From positions 32,001 to 96,000 of the forward strand of contig JAWOEX010000039.1 in NCBI GenBank assembly GCA_046482545.1: a stretch of DNA of 64,000 nt, in the 5' to 3' direction. Below, piece after piece: positions 10,985 through 32,145 of the stretch (positions are counted from its first letter, which is position 1; every line of letters starts with the position of its first letter). A model generated the notes under the pieces. The model was not told the origin of the DNA, ran no database searches, and saw only the letters and a program-made list of their open reading frames with translations. The stretch is from Candidatus Thorarchaeota archaeon. Lineage in GTDB: Archaea > Asgardarchaeota > Thorarchaeia > Thorarchaeales > Thorarchaeaceae. The position numbers and the translations under genes are program-made.

Positions 10985-11060
10985 TGGTCTATTGCAGACT
11001 CGGACATACTCCCCGAGTACCTTAGCTCAGAGATAGACCATTTAGTCGGGAATACGTCCG
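10983..11060. ncRNA. Candidate pseudoknotted RNA element
   Basis: Interleaved inverted repeats: AATGGTCTAT 10983-10992 / ATAGACCATT 11033-11042 and 11001-11016 / 11046-11060. Confidence 0.4.
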
Positions 11061-11202
11061 TGTTCGAGCGTGATTTACCTCAATAGCAAATCAGCAGAAG
11101 AACATCGTTGTATGAGATAAGAAAGAGAAACAGAACGGCATTTTCCTACCACCATGATGTTCGTGTGGGAGTTACCGCTTCCTCAGCAATGAACGGATTT
11201 TC

Positions 11203-11502
11203 TCATTCCTCGACGGGAGTATTGAAGGCCACATACACGCTCTGGTCACGGTCGTCAATGACCACGTGGTGAGTTACGTTGTCCTTCATATCTAGCTTCA
11301 TCTTGAGCTCCTGTATCGCGTCATCATCTTGGGGGCGGAGACGTAGATAATCTTTGAGGAAATCCAAACTCACTGCATTCCCAGTATCCTTGATATCATT
11401 TAGCATCTCATCAAGTCGTTGCGCTGTGTCCATATCCAACTTCCTATTACTCTCTCGAATCTTCGAGACTTCCTTGAGGTGTTTCGTCCATTTTGCCATC
11501 AT
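11203..11502 (-). CDS. Hypothetical protein (99 aa)
   Basis: Non-overlapping ORF with AGGTGA SD upstream and protein-like composition. Confidence 0.7.
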   Translation of the reverse strand: MMAKWTKHLKEVSKIRESNRKLDMDTAQRLDEMLNDIKDTGNAVSLDFLKDYLRLRPQDDDAIQELKMKLDMKDNVTHHVVIDDRDQSVYVAFNTPVEE

Positions 11503-11715: not shown

Positions 11716-12795
11716 GTGGATATAGGATTGACAAAATGTACAATTTCGTACACAACGACTGATGGAGTTTCTGAGAGAGCCACTATTGAAAATGGTTCTA
11801 TTGACTTACGAAAAAAATCCATCGAGACCATCAATTTGACAGGATTTGAAGGCTGTGATGCTCTGAAGAGGTTAAAACTCGATGGTAACAAACTCACCAA
11901 GATTAATCTGGAACCCTTGAGTACTTGTCCGAACCTCCGAGTCCTTGACATATCGAAGAACAGCTTCACCGAGTTGGATATTTCTCCTCTTGAGAAATGT
12001 GAAGAACTCGAGAAGTTGAACATTGGAACGAACATCATCGAAGAAATTAATCTCTCGGTTTTGGAAAATTGCGAAAATCTTCGCAGTTTGAGATTGTTCA
12101 ACAATAAACTAAGAGAAATCAACCTAGAAGCTCTTTCCAATTGCTCACATTTGACTCGCCTTGAGCTGGCCAACAATTTGCTCGGTAGCTTGGATTTGTC
12201 GCCGCTTGACAATTGCGAGGAAATCGAGCAACTGAATGTGATGTATAATGAACTGCGTCACCTTGATCTTAGCCCACTCTCCGCTGCAAAAGGACTGCGT
12301 TTTCTGTATTTGCATCACAACTATCTCGAATCGCTTGATTTGAGCCCTCTTCGGAACTGCCCTGAATTACACATTCTCCGACTCGGAGGCAACGAACTAC
12401 AGGAAATCGATCTTGCACCCCTATCTAAATCTAAGAATCTGGTTAGAATAGGTATTGCAATGAATAACCTCCGGGAAATTGATTTGACGCCCCTAGCTGA
12501 GTGTTCGGCTCTTTATAGTTTGGACATTTCACGCAACAAACTAACCGAGATAGACCTTGAGCCTCTTTCCAACTGCAAGAACCTTGAGGAACTCTATATT
12601 TACAGCCATCACGAGCAGGAAGAAAATAGGTTTGAAGAAATTGATCTGACGCCTCTTTTTGAATGCCCAGAGCTCATAGACATGATTCTGCCAGAGAAGG
12701 CCGAACTTGTGGCAGATAAGGAGTATAAGGATCATGAAGATATACCCACAGCAATGGACAGGCTAAAAGAAGACGCCAGGATTACTTGGATCTAA
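11716..12795 (+). CDS. Leucine-rich repeat protein (about 12 x 24-aa repeats)
   Basis: Repeat LxxLxLxxNxLxxIDLxPLxxCxx. Confidence 0.95.
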   Translation: MDIGLTKCTISYTTTDGVSERATIENGSIDLRKKSIETINLTGFEGCDALKRLKLDGNKLTKINLEPLSTCPNLRVLDISKNSFTELDISPLEKCEELEKLNIGTNIIEEINLSVLENCENLRSLRLFNNKLREINLEALSNCSHLTRLELANNLLGSLDLSPLDNCEEIEQLNVMYNELRHLDLSPLSAAKGLRFLYLHHNYLESLDLSPLRNCPELHILRLGGNELQEIDLAPLSKSKNLVRIGIAMNNLREIDLTPLAECSALYSLDISRNKLTEIDLEPLSNCKNLEELYIYSHHEQEENRFEEIDLTPLFECPELIDMILPEKAELVADKEYKDHEDIPTAMDRLKEDARITWI

Positions 12796-13007
12796 GCCAA
12801 CGCTAGATTTAGGTAATCAAATTAAACAACATATTTTCGGACAATGGGATATAAAGTCATTCTATCCAGTTTGTATCTTCATGGTTCTTAGTGTTCAATT
12901 CTTCACAGATGGGTAGTGTATCTCCTATCATAACGAGGAATGGGGAGGTGATGTATTGCATGCATGATGAGATTGTGTGAGCAATGCAGTGAAGGAGGTG
13001 AAAAAGT

Positions 13008-13040
13008 TTGATACCTGACTGGCCCGACGTTCCTTGGTAA
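13008..13040 (+). CDS. Candidate micropeptide MIPDWPDVPW (TTG start)
   Basis: AAGGAGGTGA SD with 7-nt spacing from GGAGGTG, upstream TATA (12849-12856) and structured leader, downstream terminator-like hairpin. Confidence 0.5.
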   Translation: MIPDWPDVPW

Positions 13041-13058
13041 CTGATTTATCAACCAAAT

Positions 13059-13087
13059 GGGGGGTCAGCCTCGTGACCCCCTTCCTT
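13059..13087 (+). terminator. GC-rich hairpin terminator candidate
   Basis: GGGGGTCA-GCCTCG-TGACCCCC followed by a pyrimidine tract. Confidence 0.65.
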
Positions 13088-13231
13088 AACTATTTCTCCA
13101 AACTTCTAGAAAAGCTGACCTCCTCCTGAAGGCTGTGAATGCACCACTAGTTCACTTGAATATCTCATTACCAAGAAAATTGAAAACGAATATAATAGAT
13201 AAACAAGATAAGTTTCAAGAGTTGATCAAGC

Positions 13232-13879
13232 ATGGTCATCGAGATGGATGAAGAAACAAGGAAACAAGTTGAAGAGAGATTCCAAACATTGGATGGGAAG
13301 GTTTCGATGCACCTGTTTGTCGAGAGCCAAGATTGTTTGTACTGTAGTGATGCCAAGGAACTCGCCAGCAAGATAGCTGAACTCTCAGAGAAAATCGAAC
13401 TGACTGAACATGATTTGCCCGAAGCTAATGATGTTGCTTCTGAAATGGGAATTCGTTTCACTCCTGCTATTGTTCTACATGGTAAAGAGGAGTACAACCT
13501 ACGTTTCTATGGTATACCCGCAGGACATGAATTTGGTGCCCTCATTTCTGATATAGTTGACGTGTCAACGGAATCAGTTCAGCTACCCGAAGAAATGATC
13601 GCAGATATCGAAGCAATAAATCAGAAGGTGCACATTCAGGTTTTCACAACACCGCAGTGTCCCTATTGCCCCAACGTGGTTCGTTTAGCGCATCAAGCGG
13701 CCATAATCAACCTGAAGATAGAAAGTGATATGATTGAGGCGCTCGAATTCAAGGATTTGGCTCAGCGATACGAAGTATTCGGTGTTCCCAAAACAATATT
13801 CAATGAGGTTTTGTCTGCGGAGGGGAATATCACACCAGAAGAATTTGTTGACAAGCTGTACGAAGCTACTGAAACATGA
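13232..13879 (+). CDS. Protein disulfide oxidoreductase (PDO, AhpF-N-like double thioredoxin)
   Basis: CLYC and CPYC motifs; RFYGIPAGHEF. Confidence 0.92.
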   Translation: MVIEMDEETRKQVEERFQTLDGKVSMHLFVESQDCLYCSDAKELASKIAELSEKIELTEHDLPEANDVASEMGIRFTPAIVLHGKEEYNLRFYGIPAGHEFGALISDIVDVSTESVQLPEEMIADIEAINQKVHIQVFTTPQCPYCPNVVRLAHQAAIINLKIESDMIEALEFKDLAQRYEVFGVPKTIFNEVLSAEGNITPEEFVDKLYEATET

Positions 13880-15828: not shown

Positions 15829-16371
15829 CTAATCGAGAAATTTGTCCGCGATTTTCGTGAATTCATAATCAAGTGACTCGAACCCCACCCCGGTCTTTGC
15901 AGATATCAGTTGTGTCGCCATTTCGTATGGTGCTGCCATCCGATTCATTTCGGAGATGATATCGTCGAACGGTGGTGTAAGCAAGTCAATCTTGTTGCCA
16001 ACAACGATGAAGCGCTCTCCGTCTCCATTTTCTAGATCGAATCTGCTGTTCTCACTAATGGCGGGAACCCAATAATGGAAGAGATTATCCAAGGTGGCTA
16101 GCTTACTAACATCGAAGAAAAGAAGCCCGATTTTGGCCCCTCTAATCATGCTCTTCATGGTTTCGATGAATCGTCGCTGACCGCCAAAATCCCACAGAGA
16201 GAGTGTGGCATCACGACCACTTGGCAGAGTTACTTTCTTGGTATCGAAACTTGCTCCTACTGTGGTCTTAAGCATCTCAGGATCGGGAAATGTGCCGGTG
16301 GTCCACCGGGTAGTGAAAGAAGTCTTACCGCATTCAGTATCTCCTAGCACTACGGCCTTCATTATTGCCAT
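15829..16371 (-). CDS. Ras-superfamily (Rab-like) small GTPase
   Basis: G1 GDTECGKT, G2 TVG, G3 WDFGGQ, G4 NKID, G5 SAK; no C-terminal prenylation cysteine. Confidence 0.95.
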   Translation of the reverse strand: MAIMKAVVLGDTECGKTSFTTRWTTGTFPDPEMLKTTVGASFDTKKVTLPSGRDATLSLWDFGGQRRFIETMKSMIRGAKIGLLFFDVSKLATLDNLFHYWVPAISENSRFDLENGDGERFIVVGNKIDLLTPPFDDIISEMNRMAAPYEMATQLISAKTGVGFESLDYEFTKIADKFLD

Positions 16372-19128: not shown

Positions 19129-19503
19129 CTAGCGCCACAAATCTCCGATTTCTTTTCCTCTCTTTTGAACAACCCGTTCAATGCTATCTTCAATATCATT
19201 GACTGAAACCGAATCACTTGACATGACGGCTTTTAGTGCATCTTCAGTCTCCCGTTCTGTATCGCCCTCACAGATGATTACATAATCATCAATTTGACAA
19301 TACCCAACTACTCCCCCTTCAGACTTCATGAACATCGGTGCGGACGGATTGGAGGAATTGTTCCTTTCGAGTGCATGAGATACAAGTTGGATTATCCCTG
19401 TCAGCTTCGCTATCCGTTCTTCGTCCGGATCTGTGGCAGGATGAACAACTTCAAAATCCATCTGATCCAAATCTACCCGAGCCATCAATCGTAGGACCAT
19501 CAT
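19129..19503 (-). CDS. Longin-like domain protein
   Basis: 124 aa with beta-beta-alpha-beta-beta-beta-alpha-alpha pattern; GTPase-operon context. Confidence 0.6.
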   Translation of the reverse strand: MMVLRLMARVDLDQMDFEVVHPATDPDEERIAKLTGIIQLVSHALERNNSSNPSAPMFMKSEGGVVGYCQIDDYVIICEGDTERETEDALKAVMSSDSVSVNDIEDSIERVVQKRGKEIGDLWR

Positions 19504-19790
19504 TTAGTTCCCCCAAAAGTTTTCTTAACCCATTCAATTTCAGATGGTTTTTCTTGTCCGGTTGTCTTGGATGTACCGGATCTCACTGGAACCATAACGT
19601 CCCGGACACCTAGTTTGCCACCGTTCATGTAAAGAGTTACAAGAAGCTCATGCCCTTCAGAGCAGTTGACAATCATAGTAGGCGATCTCCCCTCCTCTGT
19701 TATCCGCTTCTTGACATCCTCAGCTTCGGCTTCTTCCATTTCTACTGTAGCAGGTTTTTTACACTCGGGACATTGGAAAACGATATGCAG
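19500..19790 (-). CDS. Zinc-ribbon protein (CPEC...CSEGH), probably with a non-canonical start (CTG 19790)
   Basis: Frame upstream of the tracked ATG 19739 is open and encodes HIVFQCPECKK; GAGGAG SD upstream; ATGA overlap with the longin gene. Confidence 0.6.
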   Translation of the reverse strand: MHIVFQCPECKKPATVEMEEAEAEDVKKRITEEGRSPTMIVNCSEGHELLVTLYMNGGKLGVRDVMVPVRSGTSKTTGQEKPSEIEWVKKTFGGTK

Positions 19791-31593: not shown

Positions 31594-32145
31594 TTAGGTA
31601 CCCGACATTCTTCGATCATAGAAACATGCCAGTAGAATGACTATGACGGCTACTACAGAACTCGATAGAACAACAGGCAAAAATGTGATGTGGGGGTCGA
31701 CTTGAGTAGTAGTAAGAATCCTCAGATCAATAGAACGCGAATAGCTTGTGGCTGAGTTGTTTGCCTTGTCGAAAGCCTGTATGAACAAGTTGTATGTCCT
31801 GTTCATTTGCAGAGCCGGGATTTCAGAGATGTAAAGTGAACCATTGAAACCCAGCGGATGTTTGATTCTGTCAGCTGATGACGGGTTCACAACCAATGAC
31901 ACATTTCTAACACCAGAATCTCTATCAGACACTTCGGCCCATGCTTCGAAATCCTCACCTCTTTTTGCTTCCAGACTGAAGTTCCAACTGGAAATCTCAG
32001 GTCTTACGGTATCCTGTGTTAGAACAAGAGACTTCTCTCCTTTGCTTGATTTTACTCCATCTAGGATGGGGAAAAAGAGATTCAACAACAATGCTGAAAG
32101 AAGAAAATAGCAAATCATGGTTGCGTCTCTGTTGCTTTTTGACAT
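31594..32145 (-). CDS. Small membrane-anchored protein with an Ig-like domain
   Basis: N- and C-terminal hydrophobic helices; DxxSGVRNV and AFDKANN motifs. Confidence 0.7.
   Translation of the reverse strand: MSKSNRDATMICYFLLSALLLNLFFPILDGVKSSKGEKSLVLTQDTVRPEISSWNFSLEAKRGEDFEAWAEVSDRDSGVRNVSLVVNPSSADRIKHPLGFNGSLYISEIPALQMNRTYNLFIQAFDKANNSATSYSRSIDLRILTTTQVDPHITFLPVVLSSSVVAVIVILLACFYDRRMSGT

Follow-up and report, generated by a model that had tools for sequence, protein, structure and literature searches.

A 10-amino-acid proline/tryptophan micropeptide gene of an Asgard archaeon and its family, paired with genes for predicted tandem-Lrp regulators

A tiny overlooked gene in a Candidatus Thorarchaeota genome encodes a 10-amino-acid proline/tryptophan peptide, MIPDWPDVPW, from a widespread family, many members of which sit beside one kind of regulator gene, often next to CRISPR genes. 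These archaea may therefore use short peptides as regulatory signals, a role that is so far inferred from comparative evidence alone. The sequence analyzed, referred to here as the window, is a 64,000-nucleotide stretch (positions 32,001 to 96,000, forward strand, of contig JAWOEX010000039.1, assembly GCA_046482545.1; contig C12 in our numbering) of a 3.05-Mb, 99% complete genome. The gene lies in a 436-bp gap (12796-13231) between a leucine-rich-repeat (LRR) gene and a protein disulfide oxidoreductase (PDO) gene. An earlier note, made from the sequence alone, had described in this gap a TATA-like box, two perfect Shine-Dalgarno (SD) sites, a hairpin with G-U pairs, a TTG-initiated open reading frame (ORF), and a terminator hairpin. 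That observation is confirmed, as every feature was found at the position given (Table 1).

Table 1. Features of the micropeptide unit and its surroundings (positions in the window)
Position	Strand	Feature	Evidence
11716..12795	+	Upstream neighbor, LRR protein; not part of the module	Pfam LRR_8 and LRR_5; syntenic in congeners without the peptide gene
12830..13136	.	Approximate extent of the lineage-specific insertion carrying the whole unit	Absent from the syntenic LRR-PDO gap (about 125 bp) of congeners G001 and G002
12849..12856	+	Putative archaeal TATA box, ATATAAAG; implies a 5' UTR of about 130 nt (inferred)	TATA-like motif 159 nt before the start here, 161 in the paralogue, 136-161 in most other stand-alone copies where one is seen
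12919..12926		TATCTCCT, described in the earlier note as pairable with the first SD	
12944..12952	+	First SD-like site (GGAGGTG, 12944-12950), followed by a 6-codon ORF MHDEIV (12960-12980); probably incidental	Not conserved in the paralogue, which has GGGGATAA
12952..12988	+	5' UTR hairpin with G-U pairs; possible local translational control, not family-wide	-14.7 kcal/mol (z -3.6) on the + strand, -5.9 on the - strand; inner 6 bp possible in the paralogue with one double and two single changes; no such signal in 9 other copies
12992..13001	+	SD site of the micropeptide gene, AAGGAGGTGA, 6 nt before TTG	9 nt complementary to this genome's 16S 3' end; GAGGTGA kept in the paralogue and many relatives
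13008..13040	+	Micropeptide ORF (TTG..TAA), MIPDWPDVPW; member of the acidic Pro/Trp peptide family	Identical peptide in the paralogue on contig C9 of this genome (236321-236289), 6 of 6 internal changes synonymous
13059..13082	+	GC-rich hairpin with pyrimidine-rich tail, putative terminator	-17.7 kcal/mol, z -2.95; a different-sequence hairpin at the same place in the paralogue (z -4.2) and in most stand-alone copies
13108..13133	-	Minus-strand hairpin with a T tail containing an SD-like run, at the right edge of the insertion	No start codon at a suitable distance
13189..13196	+	TATA-like box of the downstream PDO gene, independent of the unit	Conserved in this genome, G001, and G002
13232..13879	+	Downstream neighbor, PDO (thioredoxin folds); not part of the module	Pfam Thioredoxin_3

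Two lines of evidence showed that the ribosome sites and the ORF are beyond chance. First, AAGGAGGTGA occurs only twice in the 3.05-Mb genome, and the first SD-like site, like the second, has 9 nt complementary to the genome's own 16S 3' end. Second, a BLASTN search of the gap in 60 related genomes found one paralogue only, on contig C9 of the same genome (E 8e-9). It encodes the same 10 residues with ATG in place of TTG, and its six internal changes are all at third positions and all synonymous (simulated P of about 5e-6 with transition bias). Across 11 pairs of related micro-ORFs, the changes by codon position were 4/2/33, with 30 synonymous versus 5 nonsynonymous codons.

The significance of the remaining features differed. 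The ORF, the second SD, the TATA spacing, and a downstream hairpin are conserved, whereas the first SD is not, and the G-U hairpin is conserved only in part. The folding scores need some caution because the windows were picked after the hairpins had been seen, and the whole 257-nt unit is not unusually structured (z -1.0). In addition, the tail of the downstream hairpin is pyrimidine rich rather than a U run, and the consensus scan flagged it only on the minus strand. An Rfam search of the gap returned no match. Several other readings of the 5' UTR were considered and rejected. A CxxC..CxxC frame, a TGA read-through (selenocysteine) frame, and the upstream ORF MHDEIV are not conserved in the paralogue, and pairing of an SD with CCTCCTCC (13119-13126) was ruled out because that segment is not conserved. 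The first SD and its upstream ORF are therefore treated as incidental and the hairpin as a local feature. Four salt-lake metatranscriptome assemblies hold the organism in short, patchy contigs, none over 12740-13238, but because contigs cannot show absence, this is uninformative about expression. One RNA contig (run X1) over 11037-11483 has four clustered G>A differences at 11156-11165 at a depth under 5, which may be strain variation or error.

The copy in the window is an orphan. In the two congeners, genomes G001 and G002, the LRR and PDO genes are syntenic, but the insertion of roughly 310 bp that carries the unit is missing, and the PDO gene keeps its own TATA-like box. PDO therefore does not depend on the unit. 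Elsewhere in the window are a small GTPase gene (Rab/Roc-like P-loop motifs) and two short genes that look longin/roadblock-like (15829-16371 and 19129-19739, both on the minus strand); these are typical Asgard signature genes, read from sequence only.

Because DNA similarity was too low to find further members, peptide patterns were used. Of 216 intergenic SD-led small ORFs in this genome, five end in Pro-Trp, and a sixth has PW followed by two residues. Four further family loci lie on contigs C22 (114533, +), C44 (1050, -), C2 (66782, -, with an upstream copy ending PF), and C9 (325434, -). The C44 copy faces a tandem-Lrp gene that heads a type I-D-like cas operon (HD-domain protein, Csc2). 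The same survey picked up two repeated elements. One has GAGGTGGGT.ATC before a short ORF like MTTPWQ.LWKTSLSPE on five contigs (C22:154095, C26:152763, C34:61534, C37:2507, and C41:25358) and is probably a mobile element; the other has an SD followed by MVNSRGLS in three places (C10:49144, C26:67508, and C28:237372), which are probably transposon ends.

Pattern searches found many members across the order; in one search, 33 of 87 genomes had hits, against five hits of the reversed-pattern control. The exact-peptide pattern found nothing in metagenome or viral collections. A GTDB-wide WPW pattern returned chance matches in bacteria, and the only convincing micro-ORFs among the matches returned were archaeal. 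One pattern suggested restriction to a single order, but it required PW-stop and so missed the Heimdallarchaeota peptides, which end in W-P; another pattern, with unsuitable spacing, missed them too. The family has at least 72 members. The 72 distinct peptides collected have a median length of 14 residues, with 31% Pro, 10% Trp, and 16% Asp+Glu, and are hydrophilic (median GRAVY -1.18, maximum 0.41) without a signal sequence. The core is P-x-x-P-[D/E]-x-P-W; 59 of the 72 end in Pro-Trp, and some carry C-terminal extensions of up to 11 residues.

Copies within a genome are often identical whereas species differ (two copies in this genome, two in genome G014, and three in genome G037), and these orphan copies have their own promoter and hairpin. 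At the C9 locus, for example, the congeners encode MDPEMPDQPW, MDPEMPDQPF, and MAPEMPDQPF: the same place with a changed sequence. Two near-identical contigs of G001 (C11 and C12 of that genome, loci L058 and L267) carry allelic peptides ending PW and PF, a possible strain-level variation. Many class-I peptide genes (loci L144-L167 and L198-L237) have only a weak TGAT/CGAT motif 5-6 nt before ATG instead of a full SD; this motif matches the inner part of the 16S tail.

Many family members sit beside genes for 350- to 640-amino-acid proteins with two winged-helix domains, in which a Pfam scan shows HTH families only. A model of one of these (pLDDT 88) is a tandem Lrp protein, with two units of a winged helix-turn-helix (wHTH) followed by a RAM alpha/beta sandwich; its best structural hits were NirDL (E 2e-6) and Lrp/AsnC regulators (FFRPs). 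To avoid ascertainment bias, we searched from the regulator side with a fixed rule and no SD requirement. Of 57 regulators with enough upstream DNA, 37 (35 of 55 without two duplicated loci) have a PW micro-ORF within 1.4 kb upstream, always divergent, compared to 3 of 470 random genes, one of which is itself such a locus. These genomes are kin, so the count is descriptive and overstates the statistics; the pairing represents perhaps 5-6 independent locus types. Independent support comes from other lineages. First, five Heimdallarchaeota-type homologues face SD-led Pro/Trp peptides such as MDPEEWLPDDPDPWP. Second, a peptide found first in a third Asgard family lies 130 bp from a homologous regulator gene (E 3.5e-77) that is divergent from what reads as a type I cas operon. 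Homologues in another family, f23, showed no such peptide.

The two genes flanking the C9 paralogue are homologous to the regulator family (HH probability 98% and 90%). However, about a third of class-I regulators, and most of the roughly 12 tandem-Lrp genes in this genome, have no adjacent peptide gene, and orthologues of the 528-amino-acid C9 neighbor in other genera have none. One Lrp-like family (L050:5655-7241 and orthologues) nearly always ends in [D/N]PW itself and lacks an adjacent peptide gene outside genus g1; the peptides may mimic this W-x-x-P-W arm of the regulator, which is no more than a lead.

The genomic context fell into several types. Class-I cassettes often include a Csa3/CARF-like gene between peptide and regulator and lie beside csa1, cas6, cas3, RAMP, or csc2 genes. 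Class II, found in many genera of the family, has one or two peptide genes facing a regulator pair, followed by a conserved 84-amino-acid ORF (L052:5445-5699, on contig C2 of this genome, and orthologues) and, usually, an MFS-like transporter gene. The 84-amino-acid ORF has no Pfam or atlas match and could be a processing or accessory factor. In genus g10 (genomes G011 and G025), all five prolyl oligopeptidase (POP) paralogues (loci L133-L136 and L197) end 40-90 bp from a convergent peptide gene ending PDGPW, and three such pairs lie on one contig.

A candidate binding site was found in the class-I regulators. Sequence searches of Pfam and PDB with the N-terminal domain gave no hits, but its 200 residues model at pLDDT 90 and match gluzincin peptidases: LTA4 hydrolase at Z 10.0 (rmsd 5.0, 180 aligned), tricorn factor F3 at 9.3, and thermolysin at 8.7, with zincins filling nearly all of the top 50 rows. 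Foldseek ranks the same family first, but only at E 0.014. None of 42 sequences keeps the HExxH zinc motif, that helix having ARE(C) or more degenerate sequences. A dead peptidase is a plausible peptide sensor, although this step is inference, a shared fold shows no function, and the fold was seen for class I only; in the C9 neighbor the domain aligns weakly (HH 11%). A complex prediction of a class-I regulator with its cognate peptide scored 0.11 (against a mark of 0.32), but the partner was the 33-residue stop-to-stop frame, including 7 in-frame residues before the likely ATG; this is not evidence either way.

The explanation we favor, with moderate confidence, is that the unit is an extra, stand-alone copy of a short-peptide gene whose product acts in trans on a large tandem-Lrp transcription regulator. 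The comparative data establish that the ORF is under selection as protein, that promoter spacing, SD, and a downstream hairpin travel with it, that the family is tightly linked to the regulator genes, and that these proteins have the modeled folds described above. Translation in vivo, binding, the effect on transcription, and the targets are inferred, and export is no more than a possibility. In this view, the leaderless peptide, possibly trimmed, would bind the regulator through its P-x-x-P-[D/E]-x-P-W motif, most plausibly in the dead-peptidase cleft or the doubled RAM pocket, and change its DNA binding; target loci would include adjacent CRISPR-Cas operons. For the window copy, the likely partner is one of the two Lrp-like proteins flanking the identical-peptide gene on C9, and the extra copy would raise peptide dose or put it under a second promoter. 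Orphan copies that are identical within a genome but different between species fit a diffusible, lineage-specific product. Gene linkage, however, cannot tell a ligand from a mere target gene of the regulator.

The interpretation in the earlier note, a regulated micropeptide mRNA acting as a signal or RiPP precursor, a type I toxin-like unit, or a leader controlling PDO, is partly supported. A self-contained micropeptide gene is supported, and the signal-peptide option fits the evidence best; the RiPP, toxin, and leader options are not supported, and the two SDs, which the note considered unusual, are not a conserved device. The family-wide pairing with regulators could not be seen from the sequence on which that note rested.

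Of the alternatives, the one that survives best, though it appears unlikely, is that the peptide is an output of the regulator: an effector that binds another protein (for example, a Cas, ESCRT-type, or translation factor) or a stress or dormancy factor switched on with CRISPR-Cas. A divergent layout is the usual Lrp regulator-target arrangement, Pro-rich motifs are common linear docking motifs, and many cassettes head cas operons. The C22 paralogue IPEVPELP resembles MIM2 motifs, but a MIM2/ESCRT reading was rejected because it fits only two members, and most members lack the MIM2 hydrophobic positions. Against an output, peptide motif type tracks regulator subfamily (though shared descent also predicts this), the link holds in divergent, convergent, and tandem layouts, and the regulator has an extra predicted peptidase-fold domain that needs a ligand.

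A RiPP-like precursor cut or cyclized by a POP, as MSDIN peptides are by fungal POPB, is very unlikely. The link in genus g10 is in its favor, but this genome has only one S9A gene, of the distant oligopeptidase-B-like type, with no peptide gene beside it, and of 13 close POP homologues examined in other genera only one has such a neighbor. There is no conserved leader, no modifying enzyme lies near the window or C9 copies, and the POP could equally be the enzyme that matures or destroys a signal. A cis-acting leader or ribosome-arrest peptide (Trp sensing or Pro stalling at the stop codon) is also very unlikely and largely refuted by synteny, despite the strong SD, the frequent C-terminal Pro-Trp, the hairpin just downstream, and a few loci where a gene follows in the same direction. 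The identical-peptide paralogue, like many family members, faces a convergent gene, PW is followed by more residues in several members, and downstream genes are unrelated across copies. The fixed position upstream of a regulated gene that is expected of TnaC-like leader or arrest peptides and upstream ORFs is not seen. Least likely is a type I toxin, which the unit resembles only in layout (stand-alone, multicopy, with an approximately 130-nt 5' UTR, strong SD, and terminator), since the peptide is acidic with 3 Pro and 2 Asp in 10 residues (GRAVY -0.3) and has no hydrophobic helix, the 5' structure is not conserved across the family, and, judged without stranded reads, no antisense unit was seen to overlap the ORF, a minus-strand hairpin at 13133-13118 lying outside it where it would end a transcript before the overlap.

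Among known systems, the cassettes would work most like RopB/LCP of Firmicutes (PMC10518010), in which an ultrashort (8-10 amino acids) leaderless peptide gene with a good ribosome site is divergent from a cytoplasmic DNA-binding regulator; there too, sequences are lineage specific, C-terminal extensions are occasional, and about half of the receptors have an adjacent small ORF. However, LCP receptors use a TPR domain and LCPs are highly hydrophobic, with secretion and binding demonstrated, whereas here the partner is a predicted tandem-Lrp protein, the peptides are acidic, and the host is archaeal. Rgg/SHP and other RRNPP cassettes share an adjacent regulator and short peptide gene, several paralogous pairs per genome, and orphan members, but the present family has no secretion signal or processing leader and no TPR receptor. 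Classical archaeal Lrp/AsnC (FFRP) regulators (PMC2995911) have the wHTH-plus-RAM fold but are 15-kDa single units whose RAM pocket binds amino acids, without the added N-terminal domain and linked peptide gene. IrrE/ImmA-type and other zincin-domain regulators also join a zincin fold to a DNA-binding regulator context (IrrE appeared only as a weak Foldseek row), but those are active proteases with HExxH. The MSDIN/POPB system of Amanita shares short Pro-containing peptide genes linked to an S9A POP, which holds here in one genus only, and no conserved leader or follower was found.

A more speculative and rather doubtful possibility is that these are cell-to-cell signal peptides of Asgard archaea, read by a receptor built from a dead zinc peptidase and two Lrp units, that tune CRISPR-Cas and other loci to population density or kin, with POP as maturing or quenching enzyme. 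To our knowledge, no peptide-regulator signaling pair has been characterized in archaea, and literature searches, which reached few subscription papers, found no description of this peptide family. The genes are too short for gene callers, so they are missing from annotations although they occur in many Thorarchaeia genomes and in at least two other Asgard families. If the peptide binds the regulator, the question of whether Asgard archaea communicate and control their CRISPR immunity by density becomes open to direct experiment, and Lrp-family proteins would gain a new ligand class through a new sensor architecture.
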